Shown: piece after piece, positions 4,341 through 43,903 of the stretch
How positions within the stretch are numbered: position 1 is the first letter of the stretch
Layout of the letters: the number at the start of each line of letters is the position of its first letter
Source of the DNA: Alkalicoccus sp.
GTDB lineage: Bacteria > Bacillota > Bacilli > Bacillales > Salisediminibacteriaceae
Assembly: GCA_007692495.1 (NCBI GenBank)
Contig: REBZ01000152.1
Location: 16,626 to 80,625 of the forward strand
Length of the DNA stretch: 64,000 nt
Reading direction: 5' to 3'
Program-made: the position numbers and the translations under genes
The notes under the pieces: generated by a model
Databases searched by the model: none
Seen by the model: only the letters and a program-made list of their open reading frames with translations
Told to the model about the DNA's origin: nothing

Positions 4341-4568
4341 GGCGAATGACAGCAGGGGGAGAGAACGGCCAAGGCCGTCGCCGAAGGAGCAAGCGCATCT
4401 GCGTGAATCTCTCAGGCAAAGCAGACTCCTGCTTGACGCATCTCTGGAAAGATCCATATAAGGGTCACCGATGGGGAAACCTCCCGATTTCTGCAGCTGG
4501 AGGAGAAAACTCTCAGGTACACAGACAGAGGCGTTCTGACTACAATCAGGGCGTTTCTGTCTTTTTTG
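4341..4568 (+). ncRNA. Tandem glycine riboswitch with terminator-type expression platform
   Basis: Two aptamers (GGGAGAG..CGCCGAAGGAGCAA..CTCTCAGG and CTCTGGAAAG..CACCGATGGGG..CTCTCAGGTA), then a hairpin and T-run before gcvT. Confidence 0.92.
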
Positions 4569-16614: not shown

Positions 16615-17172
16615 ATGATTTCAGTAAACGATTTTAAAACAGGACTGACAATTGAAACAGATAATGATATTTGGCAGGTACTTGAATTTCAACACGTTAA
16701 ACCGGGAAAAGGTGCGGCATTTGTTCGTTCAAAACTGCGGAGTCTCCGGACAGGAAACACCCAGGAAAAAACATTCCGGGCCGGTGAAAAAGTTGAGAAG
16801 GCACACATCGAAAACAAAACGATGCAGTATCTGTATTCCAGCGGGGATGACCATGCATTTATGGATACTTCCTCCTATGAACAAATTGACCTTCAAACCG
16901 GCCAGATTAAACGCCAGCTTAAATTTTTAAAAGAGAATATGGAAGTCAGTATACTCATGTACGGCAATGAAATTCTCGGTGTCGAACCTCCTCAGTCCGT
17001 GGAACTGGAAGTAACAGAGACGGAACCCGGTATCAAGGGAGACACAGCATCCGGAGGTACGAAACCGGCAACGCTGGAAACAGGTCTTACTGTACAGGTT
17101 CCTTTCTTTGTCAATCAGGGGGACAAACTCATTATTGATACACGGGAAGGGAAGTACGTATCCCGGGCCTAA
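16615..17172 (+). CDS. efp: Elongation factor P
   Basis: [29 protein letters not shown]. Confidence 0.98.
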
Positions 17173-17211
17173 TAAAAACACCGGCAGAGCCGGCATGCAG
17201 GAGGTAATAGT

Positions 17212-17547
17212 ATGGAGTGGTCAGATTTAACGGAAGGCGCTAAAGCAGTTCTGGAGCAGACGCGCAACATCAAAAACGACAAAATACAAATTGTGGAGTT
17301 TCAAGTGGGGTTTGAACAGGAGGCGGAGGAAGCTGAAGGGGCACCCGTCTCCATTCAGGAAAAAGATTACGAAAGCCTGAAACAATATACGAAAGAAAAT
17401 GGATATGGAGAAAAGTACCATATGGCAAGAAACAGGGACATGGTCAAGATTATACTGCTGGAAGATGGTAAAATACCAGATAACCTTTCAGATTTCCCTG
17501 TATTTAGAGAGTATAAGAACACCCCTAAGACGGAAGAAGAAGTGTAA
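17212..17547 (+). CDS. Hypothetical acidic protein (111 aa)
   Basis: Strong RBS AGGAGGT, clean ORF followed by a terminator; no recognisable motif. Confidence 0.7.
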   Translation: MEWSDLTEGAKAVLEQTRNIKNDKIQIVEFQVGFEQEAEEAEGAPVSIQEKDYESLKQYTKENGYGEKYHMARNRDMVKIILLEDGKIPDNLSDFPVFREYKNTPKTEEEV

Positions 17548-23263: not shown

Positions 23264-24151
23264 GTGAATAAACCCCTTCTCGATACGTTTATTGACAGCC
23301 ATAAAGCCAGGGTGGAAAGCTTCTTTGAAGAGATAACTTCTTCTCTTGAAGCTCCCCGTCAGCTTCAGGAGGCTATGCTTTATTCTCTTCAGGCCGGGGG
23401 GAAGCGCATACGTCCAATGCTTCTCTATGCCGTGCTTGAAAGCTATGACAGGGACAAAACGGCAGGAGACAGCACTGCCTGTGCGCTGGAAATGATACAC
23501 ACATACTCCTTGATTCATGATGATCTTCCTGCAATGGATAACGATGATTTTCGAAGAGGTAAACCGACAAATCATAAAATATTCGGTGAAGCAACAGCTA
23601 TACTCGCAGGAGATGCACTGCTGACGCATGCTTTTCAACTTATCTCCAGGGACGACCGGCTTGCTCCTGAAAAAAGGCTGGAAAACGTACGTCTTCTTTC
23701 CCGTGCAGCCGGGCCGGACGGAATGGTGGGCGGTCAGACGGCTGATATGCTTGCGGAGGAAAAAGAAGTTACTGTAGAGGAAATGGAAAGTATTCATAAC
23801 CGTAAAACCGGAGATCTGCTGGCCGTAGCGCTCCAGATGGGAGCTTCCATTGCAGGTGCGGGAAAGAAAGAGCAGGAAGCGCTTCACCGGTTTGGCATTC
23901 ATATCGGACTGGCCTTTCAAATCAAAGATGACCTGCTTGATGTTGAAGGAGATGAGCAGCTGCTCGGAAAACCGGTAGGAAGTGATGAAGGAAATCATAA
24001 AAAAACATACGTCAGTCTGCTCGGTCTGGAAAAAGCAAAAGAGCGTCTGAAATTCCACACAGGTGCGGCTCTTTCCGAGCTGGAGGAGCTTTCTGTTCCG
24101 AGTCACATACTGCAGGAGCTGGCTGTTTATATTGCAGAACGTGATCAGTAG
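23264..24151 (+). CDS. ispA: Farnesyl diphosphate synthase
   Basis: GGKRIRP, HDDLPAMDNDDFRRG, FQIKDD. Confidence 0.95.
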   Translation: MNKPLLDTFIDSHKARVESFFEEITSSLEAPRQLQEAMLYSLQAGGKRIRPMLLYAVLESYDRDKTAGDSTACALEMIHTYSLIHDDLPAMDNDDFRRGKPTNHKIFGEATAILAGDALLTHAFQLISRDDRLAPEKRLENVRLLSRAAGPDGMVGGQTADMLAEEKEVTVEEMESIHNRKTGDLLAVALQMGASIAGAGKKEQEALHRFGIHIGLAFQIKDDLLDVEGDEQLLGKPVGSDEGNHKKTYVSLLGLEKAKERLKFHTGAALSELEELSVPSHILQELAVYIAERDQ

Positions 24152-24159
24152 CCATTTAA

Positions 24160-24189
24160 TTGTCCGTACCTCTTATTTCATGATATAAT
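24160..24189 (+). promoter_or_regulatory. SigA promoter of the ole RNA
   Basis: TTGTCC-N18 then extended -10 TGaTATAAT, ending 6 nt before the RNA closing stem. Confidence 0.75.
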
Positions 24190-24195
24190 AATAAA

Positions 24196-24754
24196 GGTGA
24201 GTGGTGCAGTATTCTAGTCGGTTCTACAGCCTCGAAAGCGGGCCTAAAAATCCGCTAAAGGGCACATCGATGAAGTTCCTAGTCTTGGCTTGAGGCGCCC
24301 AGCCTTGGGTCCTGACTGGGAGTAAAGGCTGTAGGGCGATCCACAAAGGCATGTGGGCGATGACCCTGCAGCCGCGGAGGCCTGTAAGTATGGCGTCAGA
24401 CCCACTGATGCTGTGCTTGCAGGTATGAACCTGCCTTGCGAGTCAGGGAACGAGCGGGCAGCGTAGCCTGCCTTGAGTGGAGTCTGAGGGGATTATGGTA
24501 GCCAACCATATGAAATCAGCTCTGCAAAAGAGGATAGAGGTTGATTTGAACTGCCGGGGAAAACCCCTAGACTGTTCCACAGGACATTAAAAGAGGATTA
24601 TAGTGCGTACTGAGTGGTAATCCAGTCTGGCGTCTGGCGACAGCGTCAAGCCGGGTTTAAAGGGAAACCACCGTGGCGGCGACGCTGCGGTACCCGGCTG
24701 GGAAAACCTACTGGACCTAAGGCGCAGTCTTTACTCCTTTAATGACCACTCACC
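24196..24754 (+). ncRNA. ole: OLE RNA (ornate, large, extremophilic RNA)
   Basis: Perfect closing stem GGTGAGTGGT (24196-24205)/ACCACTCACC (24745-24754); many nested helices and GCGA tetraloops; OLE-type blocks GTGCAGTATTCTAGTC, GCGGGCCTAAAAATCCGCTAAAGGGCACATCGATGAAGTTCCT, GTAGCCTGCCTTGAGTG, AAAGGGAAACC; ispA-ole-oapA-dxs context; no long ORF. Confidence 0.93.
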
Positions 24755-24800
24755 ATTTACATAATAAGTATGTACTGCCCAAGGGAGACGGGATTTATAA

Positions 24801-25409
24801 ATGAAGGAATCAATGAAACAATCTTTAAGATGGAGCTGGATGATCGCCGTTATCACACTCGTGTTAGCGGCTATTTTTTCTGTCATTTCCACAGCGATAT
24901 TAAGCGGGGTAGCCTGGGCAGTAGGTATGATGATTGTGTTTCTCATCGTCCTTCTGGGGGTAATATCTGATACTATAGGGGTTGCTGCGACTGCAGCCCG
25001 TGAAAAGCCGTTTCATGCGATGGCTGCGGAAAAGCTTCCCGGGGCCAGGCAGGCGGTTCAAATTACCCGCAACGCAGATAAATTTTCTAATTTTACAAAT
25101 GATGTTATTGGGGATATTGCAGGGGTAATAAGTGGTACAGCTTCTGCCTATGTCGTGCTGCAGCTTGCTTCCCAGCTTGGGCATGAAGAAGGTTCCACCA
25201 CCCAGTTTGCTATATCAGTATTATTTACAAGCATCGTGGCAGCACTGACCGTAGGTGGAAAGTCAGTGGGTAAAACCCTTGCGATTCAATATTCTACAGA
25301 GATCATTTACCGTGTGGGTAGATTATTTTATGTGATAGAGGTAAAATTAAAAATAACAATTTTTAAGAAGAAAAAGAAAAAACGAAAGAATTTAAAAGGA
25401 AGAAAGTGA
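24801..25409 (+). CDS. oapA: OLE-associated membrane protein OapA (DUF21/CNNM-like TM domain)
   Basis: Directly downstream of ole; hydrophobic helices; PFHAMAA..K..GA and NDVIGDIAG (D101/D105); LTVGGK; Lys-rich tail. Confidence 0.88.
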   Translation: MKESMKQSLRWSWMIAVITLVLAAIFSVISTAILSGVAWAVGMMIVFLIVLLGVISDTIGVAATAAREKPFHAMAAEKLPGARQAVQITRNADKFSNFTNDVIGDIAGVISGTASAYVVLQLASQLGHEEGSTTQFAISVLFTSIVAALTVGGKSVGKTLAIQYSTEIIYRVGRLFYVIEVKLKITIFKKKKKKRKNLKGRK

Positions 25410-25418
25410 GGGTTTCTT

Positions 25419-27308
25419 TTGGATGTATTAGAGATGAAGGACCCGGCTTTTTTAAAAGAGCTGGATGACAGGCAGCTTCGGAGTGTAGCTGAAGATATAA
25501 GGGAATTTTTGATCAGCAAACTTTCAGTTACAGGAGGCCATCTCGGGCCTAATCTAGGGGTGGTGGAACTGACTCTCGTACTGCATCAGCTGTATGAGAG
25601 CCCAAAAGACAAATTTCTATTCGATGTAGGCCATCAGGCATACGTGCATAAAATTTTAACCGGCAGGGCCGGCCAGTTTGATACTCTGCGGCAGCATAAA
25701 GGACTCTGCGGATTTCCTAAGCGTTCCGAATCGATCCATGACTGCTGGGAAACGGGGCACAGCTCCACATCGCTTTCCGGAGCAATGGGCATGACACTTG
25801 CACGTGATTTAAAAGGATCGGATGAGCATATCGTTCCAATAATAGGAGACGGCGCTTTGACCGGAGGCATGGCGTTGGAAGCGCTTAACCATATTGGTCA
25901 TGAGCAGCGGGACATGACAGTGATTTTGAATGATAATGAAATGTCAATTGCACCGAACGTCGGCGCACTTCATAATATGCTTGGAAGAATGCGTACAGCC
26001 GGAAAGTATACACGGGCGAAAGAAGATCTTGAAATGCTCATTAAAAAAGTACCAGCATTCGGTGGGCGTATTGCTGCTACAGCGGAACGTCTGAAAGACA
26101 GCCTCAAGTATATGTTTGTATCGGGCATGTTTTTTGAAGAACTCGGATTTACGTATCTCGGACCTGTGGACGGACATGATATAAATGATCTTCGTTCCAA
26201 TATCCAGTACGCTAAAAAAACTAAAGGGCCGGTGCTGATCCACGTTGTCACAAAAAAAGGGAAAGGCTATGCACCTGCCGAGAACGATGCCAAAGGTACT
26301 TGGCACGGTCTTGGCCCGTACAAAATTGAATCCGGGGAGGTTGTTAAAAAACCGGGGCCTCCAAGTTACAGCGGCGTCTTTGCAGAAACGATGAAAAAAA
26401 TTGCAAGAACCGATGAAAAGCTCGTCACGGTTACTCCTGCCATGCCGAATGGAAGCGGACTCGATAAATTCGCCCAGGAATTCCCGGAAAGAATGTTTGA
26501 TGTCGGAATAGCAGAGCAGCATGCAACTACGATGTCAGCAGGACTTGCGGCACAGGGTATGAAGCCTGTACTTGCGATTTATTCCACGTTTCTTCAGCGT
26601 GGATATGATCAGCTTGTCCATGACGTATGCCGTCAAAATTTAAATGTAGCCTTTGCTATTGACCGAGCCGGACTCGTTGGGGCGGATGGAGAAACTCATC
26701 AGGGCGTATTCGATATCTCCTATATGCGTCATCTGCCTAATATGAAACTTATGGCGCCGAAGGACGAAAATGAATTTCAGCATATGCTTTACACAGCTGT
26801 ACAGTATGAAAATGGTCCTGTTGCAGTAAGGTATCCACGAGGAAGCGGAATTGGTGTGGAGATGGACGAAACCCTGCAGGAAATTACTTTGGGACAGTGG
26901 GAAGTGCTTAAACAAGGTGAGGATGCAGCTATACTCGCTTTCGGTACGATGGTTCCTGTAGCTGAAGCGGCGGCAGAGCTTCTCGCTCAAAAAGGCATAT
27001 ATACAGAAGTTATAAATGCCCGTTCAATCAAGCCTCTCGATCATGAAAAGCTTTTCGAATTAAATAAAAAACAGAAACCGATTCTCACAATGGAAGAACA
27101 TGTTCTTCAAGGCGGATTCGGGAGTGCAGTACTGGAATTTTATCACGAACAGGGGATCCATTCCGCAGTAGTAGAGCGAATGGGTATCGAGGACTGCTAC
27201 ATCGAACACGGAGGCGTGCCGGATCTTCTTAAAGAGGTAGGGCTTACAGACGAAAATGCAGCAGCACGTGTTGTGGAAATGCTTCCCCCTAAAAAACAGC
27301 GGGCCTGA
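25419..27308 (+). CDS. dxs: 1-deoxy-D-xylulose-5-phosphate synthase
   Basis: [34 protein letters not shown]. Confidence 0.97.
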
Positions 27309-28990: not shown

Positions 28991-30715
28991 GTGCTGATGG
29001 AAATTTCAATTCGAAACTTTGCCATTATTGAAGAATTGACAGTATCATTTGAAGAGGGTCTGACAGTTTTAACTGGAGAAACCGGTGCAGGAAAATCGAT
29101 TATTATTGATGCTATCGGACTGCTTATAGGCGGACGGGGATCTGTAGAGTTCGTCAGGCACGGCAGCAAACGGGCAGAGATCGAAGGTTTATACACTGTG
29201 GAGGAGCCTCTTCCGGCAGAAACAGCTGCATTATTCCAGGATCTTGGAATTAAACTTGATGAAGAAGAAACAGTAGTTTTAAAGAGGGAAATTACTAAAC
29301 AGGGAAAAAGTGTGTGCCGGGTGAACGGCCGCCTGACCACACTCGGCATTCTGCGTCAGATCGGCCAGCAGCTTGTTGACATACACGGGCAGCACGAGCA
29401 TCAGCAGCTTCTGCAGACCGATAAGCACGGCATGTTTCTTGACCGCTTTGCAGAGGAAGAACTGAAAGAAGCTAAAAAAGAATATTCCTCTCTTTACGAC
29501 AGGTTTGACAAAAAACTTAAACAACTGAAGCAGCTTTCCGACAATGAACAGCAGATGGCTCAGCGCCTGGACCTGATTCAGTATCAATTTGAAGAAATTC
29601 AACAGGCTCAGCTTCAGCCGCAGGAAGACGTACTTTTGATAGAAGAAAAGAGAAAGCTGAACAACAGTGAAGGACTTTACAGAACGATCCATGGCGCATA
29701 CGAAAGTCTTTACGGAGACAGCAAAGGGCTGGAGTGGGTCATGGCTGCAAAAAACCAGGTGGAGGAAGCAGCTGAAATGGACCCGGAAATCGGAAAGTTA
29801 AAGGAAACAGTGGAAGAAGGGTATTATATGCTGGAAGAAGCTGCATTTTCTTTAAGGGATTACTATGAATCCATCGAATTTGATCCGGAAAGACTTCATG
29901 AAATCGAAGCCCGACTGAGTGAAATCAGCCAGCTGAAACGTAAGTACGGAGAAAGTGTGGAAGAAATTCTGGAATATTGTGCTTCAATCGAAGAAGAGCT
30001 GGATACACTTACCAATCGGGAGCAGCGGCTGGGAGAATGGCAGCAGGAACTGGAGGCTGCAGCTGCAGATCTTTATGTGGAGGGAATGCACATAAGCGAT
30101 ATCAGAAAAAAGGCAGCCGGTAAACTGAAGGAGGCAATTCAGCAGCAGCTGAAAGATTTATATATGCCTCATACGGAGTTTGAAGTACTCGTTCAGACAG
30201 CTCCTCAGGAAGAATTCACGGCGGACCAGCTGTTGAAAAAGCACCCGTTCCAACGGTCGGGTATCGACTCCATAGAATTTCAGGTAGCTACAAATAAAGG
30301 AGAACCGCTGAAATCACTCGCGAAAGTAGCTTCCGGGGGAGAGATTTCCAGGATGATACTGGCACTTAAATCCATTCTCGCCCGTCATGAAGGTGTAACT
30401 TCCCTTATATTTGATGAAGTTGATACAGGAGTAAGCGGGAGAGTGGCCCAGGCAATTGCGTCAAAAATTCACCGGCTCGCAGAAGGCTCCCAGGTTTTAT
30501 GTATTACTCACCTGCCTCAGGTAGCAGCCATGGCCGACACGCATTTATTCATTTCGAAACAGGAAAAAAATGAACGGACTATAACCAGTGTCCATCCATT
30601 AAGCAGTGAAGAGCAGATTGAAGAAGTAGGGCGTATGATGTCCGGAACCGATATTACAGATGTGACGAAGCAGCATGCCCGGGAGCTTATTTCTCAGGCA
30701 TCTGACCGGAAGTAA
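28991..30715 (+). CDS. recN: DNA repair protein RecN
   Basis: TGETGAGKS, coiled coil, ASGGEISR, FDEVDTGVSG. Confidence 0.97.
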   Translation: MLMEISIRNFAIIEELTVSFEEGLTVLTGETGAGKSIIIDAIGLLIGGRGSVEFVRHGSKRAEIEGLYTVEEPLPAETAALFQDLGIKLDEEETVVLKREITKQGKSVCRVNGRLTTLGILRQIGQQLVDIHGQHEHQQLLQTDKHGMFLDRFAEEELKEAKKEYSSLYDRFDKKLKQLKQLSDNEQQMAQRLDLIQYQFEEIQQAQLQPQEDVLLIEEKRKLNNSEGLYRTIHGAYESLYGDSKGLEWVMAAKNQVEEAAEMDPEIGKLKETVEEGYYMLEEAAFSLRDYYESIEFDPERLHEIEARLSEISQLKRKYGESVEEILEYCASIEEELDTLTNREQRLGEWQQELEAAAADLYVEGMHISDIRKKAAGKLKEAIQQQLKDLYMPHTEFEVLVQTAPQEEFTADQLLKKHPFQRSGIDSIEFQVATNKGEPLKSLAKVASGGEISRMILALKSILARHEGVTSLIFDEVDTGVSGRVAQAIASKIHRLAEGSQVLCITHLPQVAAMADTHLFISKQEKNERTITSVHPLSSEEQIEEVGRMMSGTDITDVTKQHARELISQASDRK

Positions 30716-31018
30716 CCCATGGTGAGCTGATTTCACATTTTCTTTTACCTTATTCGAAAAAAATATATAAAATATTCCTTTGTAAGAATATGTATCTGCT
30801 CTGTGCAGTTCCCTCAATCATGAAAAGTCCCACTGCTGCCGACATTACAGAAGATAATAGATGCCCTCCCTGTTTAATAATAAGCTCTGCTCGTGTTGAG
30901 AGTTGTCGTTAATCGAGCCTGAACCTGCTTTAAACGTCCACTTTCACTATGCTATACTTGGAGAATCATAAACTGCAGGAAAAACAGTATCAGGCAGAGA
31001 GGTAAGGGGGACGCGGGT

Positions 31019-31798
31019 ATGAACAAGATAAAAGTTTGTGTAGCTGATGATAACAAAGAACTTGTTGGTCTGCTGGAAGAATACCTGAACGATACGGATG
31101 ATATAACGGTTATTGGGAAAGCTTACAACGGGCAGGAGTGCCTGGAAATTATAAAAACAGAACAGCCGGATGTTATTATTCTTGATATTATAATGCCTCA
31201 TTTGGACGGGCTCGCAGTACTGGAAAAATTAAACGAAACACCGCTTGATAAAAAACCAAGTATTATTATGCTTACAGCTTTCGGCCAGGAGGAAGTGACA
31301 AAAAAAGCAGGGGAACTGGGAGCATCGTATTATGTGCTTAAGCCATTTGACATGGATATGCTCGTCGATAAAGTAAGGGAGGTAGCCTCTGCGGAACAGT
31401 CTGGAAAAGAACGGAGTCAGGGTAACTCCCGCCAGACCTTTACTCCGATGAATCTTGATGCCAGTATTACCAGCATTATTCATGAAATAGGAGTGCCTGC
31501 TCACATTAAAGGCTATATGTATCTGCGGGAAGCAATAACCCTCGTTTATTATGATATCGACCTGCTCGGTTCGGTGACGAAGGTCCTTTACCCCGATATT
31601 GCCGATAAATTCAATACGACGCCGAGCCGGGTTGAACGGGCTATAAGGCATGCGATCGAAGTAGCCTGGGGACGGGGAAATGTCGATTCTATTTCCAAAA
31701 TGTTCGGATATACAGTGAACAGTGCAAAGTCGAAGCCGACTAATTCTGAATTTATTGCGATGGTAGCTGATAAACTGAGAGTAGAGCATGGAAAATAA
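31019..31798 (+). CDS. spo0A: Response regulator Spo0A
   Basis: Receiver domain ([14 protein letters not shown]) plus effector domain [30 protein letters not shown]. Confidence 0.97.
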
Positions 31799-31836
31799 AA
31801 AAACCTGGAAGTCGTTTAGACTTCCAGGTTTTTTTT
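31797..31836. terminator. Bidirectional terminator between spo0A and the DUF2627-like gene
   Basis: AAAAAACCTGGAAGTC...GACTTCCAGGTTTTTTTT. Confidence 0.8.
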
Positions 31837-32085
31837 GGCAGGCTGCCGTTTTTGAAAACGGGGTGCTACCTTGTTATTCTTCCGGTCCCTGTGGAGGATA
31901 AAGCCCCCGATAAACCAGACGCCGACAGCAAGACAGATCATACCTGCGAGAAATTGAAGATAATGGGAAGGGAAAGGAGCGTTTAAAATCTGAAATAGAG
32001 TATCTCTCATAAGTTTTATGCCATATCCTGCTGTAACGATAGGGATAAGCAGAATAACTAAAGCGGCAAATCGCTGGATCGTCAT
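31816..32085 (-). CDS. Small membrane protein (DUF2627/YqzF-like)
   Basis: Two TM helices; GIKLMRD, GGFILHRDRK..KV; divergent from bkdR. Confidence 0.8.
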   Translation of the reverse strand: MTIQRFAALVILLIPIVTAGYGIKLMRDTLFQILNAPFPSHYLQFLAGMICLAVGVWFIGGFILHRDRKNNKVAPRFQKRQPAKKNLEV

Positions 32086-43828: not shown

Positions 43829-43903
43829 GCGCCCGTGGTGAAATGGATATCATACGAGATTTCGGCTCTCGCGTTCCGGGTTCGAATCCTGGCGGGCGCG
43901 CCA
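43829..43903 (+). tRNA. tRNA-Arg (anticodon TCG)
   Basis: Acceptor stem GCGCCCG/CGGGCGC, D-loop GGA with A20, anticodon arm CGAGA-TT TCG GC-TCTCG, T-loop TTCGAAT, encoded CCA. Confidence 0.95.

Follow-up and report, generated by a model that had tools for sequence, protein, structure and literature searches.

The window analysed here is a 64,000-nt stretch of contig REBZ01000152.1 of an Alkalicoccus species, in which NCBIfam matches and open reading frames give the gene order nusB-folD-xseA-xseB-ispA-(RNA)-oapA-dxs-tlyA-ahrC-recN, followed by spo0A (Table 1). The run from nusB to recN had been named in a preliminary description made from the letters alone, and its order is confirmed. The gap between the end of ispA and the start of oapA measures 649 bp, in keeping with the 650 bp reported there, and is overlapped on both strands by short ORFs of 53-71 aa, none of them long. 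The Rfam covariance model of OLE RNA (RF01071) matches this gap over its whole length (model positions 1-616) at 24185-24765 on the + strand, scoring 510.9 bits where the gathering score is 50 bits (E 6e-147); a full-length match had been expected near 24196-24754. The Rfam envelope covers 581 nt, and the RNA unit closed by helix P1 covers 559 nt, bounded as described by a perfect 10-bp stem between GGTGAGTGGT (24196-24205) and ACCACTCACC (24745-24754). This 559-mer has a folding z-score of -6.65, and none of 100 shuffles was as stable. The genome contains a single OLE match, and the same model matched none of 14 control genomes. It is virtually certain that the gap at 24160-24754 holds a genuine OLE RNA, a known membrane-associated class. 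The class has long been described, and the window copy is a modest natural variant of it. Elsewhere the window carries a glycine riboswitch aptamer (4346-4438, + strand, 66.3 bits) and a tRNA gene (43829-43900, + strand).

Table 1. Features of the OLE locus and of two sites bearing on sporulation (positions within the window).
Feature	Position	Strand	Details
spoIIIA operon site of sporulating relatives, empty here	17172..17212	.	In genome G014, seven ORFs between efp and a conserved 106-aa ORF
ispA, upstream neighbour	23264..24151	+	NF045485, 404 bits
Sigma-A-type promoter	24160..24189	+	-35 TTGTCC 24160-65, 18 nt, extended -10 TGnTATAAT 24181-89; 10/12 matches
OLE RNA gene	24196..24754	+	About 559 nt; Rfam 510.9 bits, stranded reads, P1 closure
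P3 and P3.1, 5' strands	24219..24233	+	P3 24219-24224 (pairs 24548-24553); P3.1 24227-24233 (pairs 24537-24543)
P4 hairpin, site of dimer bridge B1	24238..24255	+	A-rich loop CCUAAAAA; 588/590 cells canonical
J4a, P5/L5.1, P6/L6.1; bridge B2, k-turn/OapC and bS21 region	24256..24373	+	L5.1 GGCGCCCAG 24294-24302; L6.1 AAAGGCAUGU 24345-24354
Shortened P9	24480..24523	+	Base kept; cap hairpin UAUGGU-AGCCA-ACCAUA 24494-24510; P9.3 and GGCC loop absent (about 35 nt)
OapB-binding junction	24621..24715	+	P12.2 24621-26/24710-15; P13 24628-24648; P14 24649-55/24693-99; P14.1 24671-24690
oapA	24801..25409	+	202-aa membrane protein, D101-x-x-x-D105, basic C-terminal tail
dxs, downstream neighbour	25419..27308	+	TIGR00204, 916 bits
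recN-spo0A site	30715..31019	.	Absent here; 407-424 aa gene in sporulating relatives

The RNA had been credited with a promoter of its own, and the extended -10 element TGATATAAT is indeed present at 24181-24189. On sequence alone such motifs are no commoner than chance would give (2 found against 2.8 expected); the promoter is supported by a similar TTG.../TGnTA.. element, seen by eye at the same position in the 43 loci, out of 50, that were inspected, and by the furthest read 5' ends, which pile at 24196, 7 nt past the -10 (41 of a depth of 120 in run X10, 17 of 30 in run X11). In Halalkalibacterium (Bacillus) halodurans, a proximal promoter is reported to lift OLE expression more than 100-fold (PMC3413148).

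To assess expression, about 6% of the raw reads of each of three metatranscriptomes, all from the same study, was examined (read length 50 nt, likeness cut-off 88); these runs are not independent, and a minority of the aligned reads comes from relatives. Mean depth over the OLE RNA was 34,247, 9,308 and 4,415, compared with 7.0, 2.2 and 1.2 over ispA and 28, 4.7 and 2.8 over oapA; the RNA is thus about 3,700-4,900 times deeper than ispA in these three runs. Aligned reads represented 1.6%, 0.44% and 0.22% of the records read. Between 82 and 91% of the aligned reads were at least 99% alike, and a minority carried relatives' letters. Contig-level RNA runs and run X3, in which nearly only the OLE interval was covered and relatives' OLE was included, were excluded from the assessment of level, ends and habitat. 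A soda-lake metatranscriptome with OLE reads is already in print (PMC6704655).

The OLE reads share their strand with those of the ispA and oapA mRNAs, which places the RNA on the + strand. They reach 24196 and their 3' ends pile at 24744, 24749 and 24753, as anticipated for an abundant, discrete RNA of about 560 nt. For most molecules the 5' end maps to 24206/24207, immediately after the first strand of P1, and not to 24196. A further accumulation of 3' ends inside the RNA, at 24482 in the base of P9, accounts for about 22-24% of local depth in all three runs. The ends at 24482 and 24206/24207 may reflect processing or a library artefact, and high stability of the RNA could contribute to its excess. 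By analogy with H. halodurans and Clostridium, transcription would start at the sigma-A promoter and run on into oapA. A search for an intrinsic terminator at the OLE 3' end was negative, and this end would accordingly be made by processing.

Conservation of the structure was evaluated in a MAFFT alignment of the window copy with 118 de-duplicated homologues, in which counts of canonical pairs are uncorrected for relatedness. Partial or split matches (L027, L041, L078) and the entry for the window's own copy (L001) were left out, and 8 of 127 sequences were dropped as duplicates; helix names were mapped from the text of PMC12265935. P1, P3, P3.1, P4, P6, the base of P9, P12.2, P14 and P14.1 are canonical in 88-100% of cells (P1, 1041/1180; P3, 666/708; P3.1, 765/825; P6, 1028/1173; P12.2, 708/708; P14, 814/826; P14.1, 796/899). 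At each of the 229 columns conserved in at least 95% of the homologues the window copy agrees with the consensus, which argues that it is not decaying. Its L4 loop is identical to that of 97 of the 118 homologues, and its J4a, L5.1 and L6.1 segments to those of 50, 98 and 50, respectively; J4a, the putative k-turn for OapC, is of the commonest sequence type.

All internal motifs listed in the preliminary description were recovered: GCGGG-CCTAAAAA-TCCGC at 24238, CCGTGGCG-GCGA-CGCTGCGG as P14.1, AGCCGGG (24649) with CCCGGCT (24693) as P14, and TCCAGT (24621) with ACTGGA (24710) as P12.2. The fold also gives P13 a single bulge and a GCGA tetraloop (24637-40). One of the proposed helices, pairing CTACAGCC at 24224 with GGCTGTAG at 24327, is probably incidental. 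Its pairing probability is 0.00, it is canonical in 654/943 cells over the 118 homologues, and its two central pairs are canonical in 31 and 34 of them; by chance, at least one perfect 8-bp inverted repeat appears in 81% of 500 mononucleotide shuffles. Both of its strands are moreover needed by the better-supported P3/P3.1 and P6, the latter (24327-36/24364-73) having a pairing probability of 1.0, and we rejected this helix.

P3 and P3.1 form a stalk for which membrane crossing has been proposed (PMC12265935). The cryo-EM argument of that paper would make OLE an integral membrane RNA, with P3 stalks crossing the bilayer and the RNA conducting ions or signals between wall and cytoplasm. The window copy retains the stalk: all 13 bp of P3 and P3.1 are intact, and the two helices covary strongly, with 344 both-side changes in P3.1. 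The crossing is, however, something that the authors infer; domain 2 is not resolved in the structures, the text of PMC12265935 available to us describes no experiment that probes topology directly, and burying RNA phosphates in lipid is costly. We regard an integral membrane RNA as unlikely.

The preliminary description had judged the RNA shorter than usual. With a 581-nt match, it ranks second shortest among 92 full-model matches in 151 genomes of the order (median 622 nt), and its shortness is a clean loss of distal P9: the Rfam alignment lacks 35 model positions, all of them there. The P9 segment is 44 nt long in the window, with a distal arm of 16 nt and the loop AGCCA. In genomes from outside the family, it measures 79-87 nt (arm 51-59 nt) with GGCC in 12 of 13, G055 being short. 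The long GGCC arm occurs in 72 of the 119 de-duplicated OLEs; 5 of the 119 were unmatched by the P9 pattern. The 37 genomes of the family comprise 13 with a short arm (P9 segment 42-50 nt; nine from genus g1, three from g6 and one from g7) and 24 with an intermediate arm (60-78 nt) without GGCC; two g1 genomes have GGCC at the stem edge only. The short arm is also seen in loci from named species, among them four of Alkalicoccus and Salisediminibacterium halotolerans.

The intermediate arms (32-50 nt; L123-L135, L091, L094, L097, L100-L104, L109, L111 and L112, from genera g2-g5 and g8) show recurring CTAG/GTTGTA, and 12 of the 24 contain a GTATAC palindrome, which might replace the GGCC kiss. 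The shortest full-model match of all, at 569 nt, is L136 of genome G055, from another family, where the distal P9 arm was lost apparently independently.

Cryo-EM structures published in 2025 describe three conserved bridges within the OLE dimer: B1 (L4), B2 (L5/L6/L7) and B3, a palindromic kissing loop in L9.3, usually GGCC (PMC12286853, PMC12265935, PMC12990946). The window copy possesses the A-rich L4 loop of B1 and the L5/L6 loops of B2. The B3 feature, a long P9.3 arm with a palindromic tetranucleotide loop, is missing, and the copy falls outside the canonical three-bridge subtype. Because the P9.3 arm is deleted, two dimer bridges are predicted instead of three. Judging from the sequence, we hold it quite probable that B1 and B2 form and that bridge B3 is unable to, and B3 is likely to be dispensable in OLE. 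As a counterpoint, the residual loop AGCCA keeps a self-complementary GC dinucleotide. B1 and B2 would keep the dimer together in the absence of the arch. There is also a slim chance that the arch-less OLE is a working particle without a stable RNA dimer, or one that is differently assembled; dimerisation and paired membrane-crossing stalks would then be unneeded for OLE function.

Compared with the OLE of H. halodurans, the window copy shares the full-length covariance model, the ispA-ole-oapA-dxs context, the proximal promoter, the very high abundance, the P13 GNRA loop with its bulge and all three partner genes. It differs in being some 35-40 nt shorter, a difference due to the missing P9.3 and GGCC loop, in having a P6 without the exact anti-Shine-Dalgarno mimic and in its host, which is without core sporulation genes; here the system is known from sequence and reads. 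The cryo-EM dimers of Clostridium acetobutylicum (PDB 9MCW) and C. botulinum (PDB 9LCR) have the B1 (L4) and B2 (L5/L6) loops in common with it (PMC12286853, PMC12990946), whereas the window copy lacks their arch, B3, formed by the palindromic kissing loop of L9.3, together with the arm that bears it. Variant OLEs have been described from the TANB77 and RF39 clades (variants 1 and 2), and variant 1, which occurs in many clades, has shorter P7, P8 and P9 and often lacks the OapB site (PMC11332333). The shortened P9 is shared with variant 1. By the text of that paper the window copy is nevertheless set apart, as its P7 and P8 are within 1-2 nt of the Rfam consensus and it keeps the OapB site, oapB and oapC; only P9 is short. 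In contrast to variants 1 and 2, the P9.3-only loss is found in free-living haloalkaliphiles of Bacillaceae type. These genomes were probably already inside the GTDB survey of PMC11332333. Across the open-access texts and supplements consulted, we found no account of an OLE losing P9.3 alone, nor of OLE itself in the asporogenous genera studied here. The locus adds an OLE that has naturally lost only P9.3, retains every partner gene, is expressed in situ and belongs to asporogenous hosts.

The host lineage bears on a further suggestion of the preliminary description, that OLE does not depend on sporulation. spoIVA and spoIIIAE scored above cut-off in 49 of 61 genomes, and the 12 without them (nine of genus g1, three of g6) are the same 12, out of 40 genomes of the family, that miss a full-length spoIIE. 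Completeness is 99% or more in ten of these asporogenous genomes, and three consist of a single contig. OLE is kept in all 12, as it is in all 8 genomes of the genus other than the window genome and in 36 of 36 across the family. Two of the losses lie within the window. At the spoIIIA site, genome G014 has seven ORFs, including a spoIIIAE match, between efp and its 106-aa ORF, none of which was matched in the window genome; the 407-424 aa gene found between recN and spo0A in sporulating relatives, which we take from its position to be spoIVB, is also absent. As both losses sit inside the window contig, incompleteness of the assembly is not their cause. OLE can thus be retained without sporulation, a result compatible with a side role in sporulators. 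Published profiling correlates OLE with sporulation proteins, and modest sporulation defects are cited as unpublished in the same paper (PMC11332333).

Several genes near these sites deserve mention. spo0A (31019-31798, + strand) is intact (TIGR02875, 406.7 bits) despite the missing spoIVA, spoIIIA and full-length spoIIE, a situation known from Bacillus selenitireducens (PMC3533761); convergent with it lies a gene for a small DUF2627 membrane protein (31816-32085, - strand). A 111-aa ORF (17212-17547, + strand), about 78-82% identical in three relatives and without a Pfam or NCBIfam match, sits between efp (or spoIIIA) and accB and is retained even where spoIIIA is lost. In genome G013, a two-piece reverse-transcriptase ORF (RVT_1, E 6e-40; L141:17499-18742, - strand), probably derived from a group II intron, is located upstream of accB.

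We also considered a tie between the loss of P9.3 and that of sporulation, and rejected it because the short arm occurs in two genomes, G014 and G055, that keep spoIVA and spoIIIAE. G014 belongs to the same family and is sister to the genus in a FastTree tree of OapA and IspA (50 genomes, support 1.00), and G055 belongs to another family; related genomes do not count as independent in this comparison of arm and sporulation. The same two genomes speak against regarding the shortened copy as a relic decaying after sporulation was lost, a reading to which the occurrence of the shortest arms in asporogenous genera lends some weight. The 229 matched columns, the conserved promoter, the very high expression and the intact partner genes likewise argue against decay. 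OLE might otherwise be an undiscovered ribozyme, since its size and conservation are ribozyme-like (PMC12265935); the fragment-end pile at 24482 may speak for this reading or for that of a relic. Splicing products were absent in H. halodurans (PMC3413148), however, and no well-supported splice-like joint was seen in the raw reads. A ribozyme or a relic is, in our estimation, very unlikely.

The protein partners of OLE are all encoded in the genome. Genes for OapB and OapC, sought as the preliminary description had proposed, were both found outside the window: oapB between map and infA (E 8.8e-28 to PDB 7k9b), and oapC/ybxF before rpsL (E 1.1e-20). OapB keeps G19, R20, R35, N54 and H57 of the residues named in PMC7936274, N56 being replaced by Q, and its reported binding site, P13/P12.2 (PMC7936274), is present at the sequence level in the RNA as the P13 GNRA loop and bulge. 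As in H. halodurans, OapB would clamp P13/P12.2 and OapC would bind the k-turn.

The downstream neighbour of the RNA was correctly named as oapA: OLE lies upstream in all 80 fetched loci with an oapA homologue. The protein has no NCBIfam match, is 81-89% identical to OapA of Alkalicoccus spp., the closest named species, and carries the DxxxD motif described in PMC11332333, whose two aspartates, D101 and D105, are invariant across all 35 sequences compared. Its Pfam CNNM score (18.6 bits, E 0.0016) is below the cut-off of 28.4, a search of PDB sequences with an OapA alignment gave no match at E up to 1, and Pfam detected no CBS, CorC or other further domain in its 202 aa. The predicted structure (pLDDT 90.4) aligns best with the transmembrane domains of CorB, over 126 residues (Z 13.2, rmsd 2.1), and of CorC (Z 12.0, rmsd 9.0). 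The Foldseek E for CorB is weak (0.012), and a Z of 13 is near the chance level of helical bundles, although it clearly exceeds that of the next unrelated row (8.6). On this model, OapA is a bare CNNM/CorB-type transmembrane domain. Its likeness to the Mg2+ transporters MpfA, CorB and CorC is one of fold and working only: unlike them, it has no CBS/CorC domains, carries DxxxD and stays under the CNNM Pfam cut-off. A separate CNNM/MpfA-type gene scored above cut-off in 7 of 8 genomes of the same genus, and OLE therefore need not replace MpfA; that it does so in this lineage is unsupported. In the window genome no MpfA-type gene was seen, an absence that carries no weight in an assembly that is 81% complete.

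Taken by analogy with H. halodurans, these elements suggest a membrane particle in which OapA would tether the abundant OLE RNA to the membrane and, together with OapB and OapC, the particle would likely balance Mg2+ and Mn2+ under stress. Because OapA appears to be a bare transmembrane domain, the RNA may stand in for the CBS/CorC regulatory domains and would scaffold further partners. Knockouts in H. halodurans are Mg2+-sensitive and Mn2+ rescues some of their phenotypes (PMC10898510, PMC12265935). Mn2+ fails to rescue the cold and ethanol phenotypes (PMC10898510), so metal balance cannot explain everything, and a direct assay of transport by OapA was not found in the parts of the cited OLE literature at hand. 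We give the complete chain, from the OapA/B/C particle and Mg2+/Mn2+ balance to the two-bridge dimer, about an even chance, and would put cation homeostasis as the primary biochemical job of OLE no higher or lower than that.

The same particle may instead be chiefly a hub for general stress ("bTOR"), where proteins at the membrane, among them bS21 and ArgR, are bound and released, with the metal phenotypes lying downstream. Knockout phenotypes are diverse and several protein partners are reported in H. halodurans (PMC12265935, PMC12054373), where bS21 binds P6 (PMC12054373). Here, rpsU, the gene for bS21, is present in the genome, ahrC/argR belongs to the same cluster, the G-C pairs of P6 are conserved, and the OLE RNA exceeds oapA mRNA more than 1000-fold. 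The exact CCUCCU anti-Shine-Dalgarno mimic of H. halodurans is missing, P6 reading CCCUGC, although mutants M1-M3 indicate that the mimic need not be exact (PMC12054373). Moreover, the only obligate partner, OapA, has in its model a cation-transporter fold with invariant aspartates. A stress hub is possible but clearly less probable to us than a particle whose first task is cation balance.

The window copy offers an OLE in which one bridge is naturally deleted while the rest is intact and highly expressed, so that swapping one RNA would directly test what the P9 arch and dimerisation contribute. If it works without a stable dimer, this short RNA with a complete set of OapA, OapB and OapC would be a natural minimal construct for finding the biochemical activity of OLE. 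In the 12 sampled asporogenous genomes of this family, OLE is also separated from sporulation, the very process with which published profiling had associated it.
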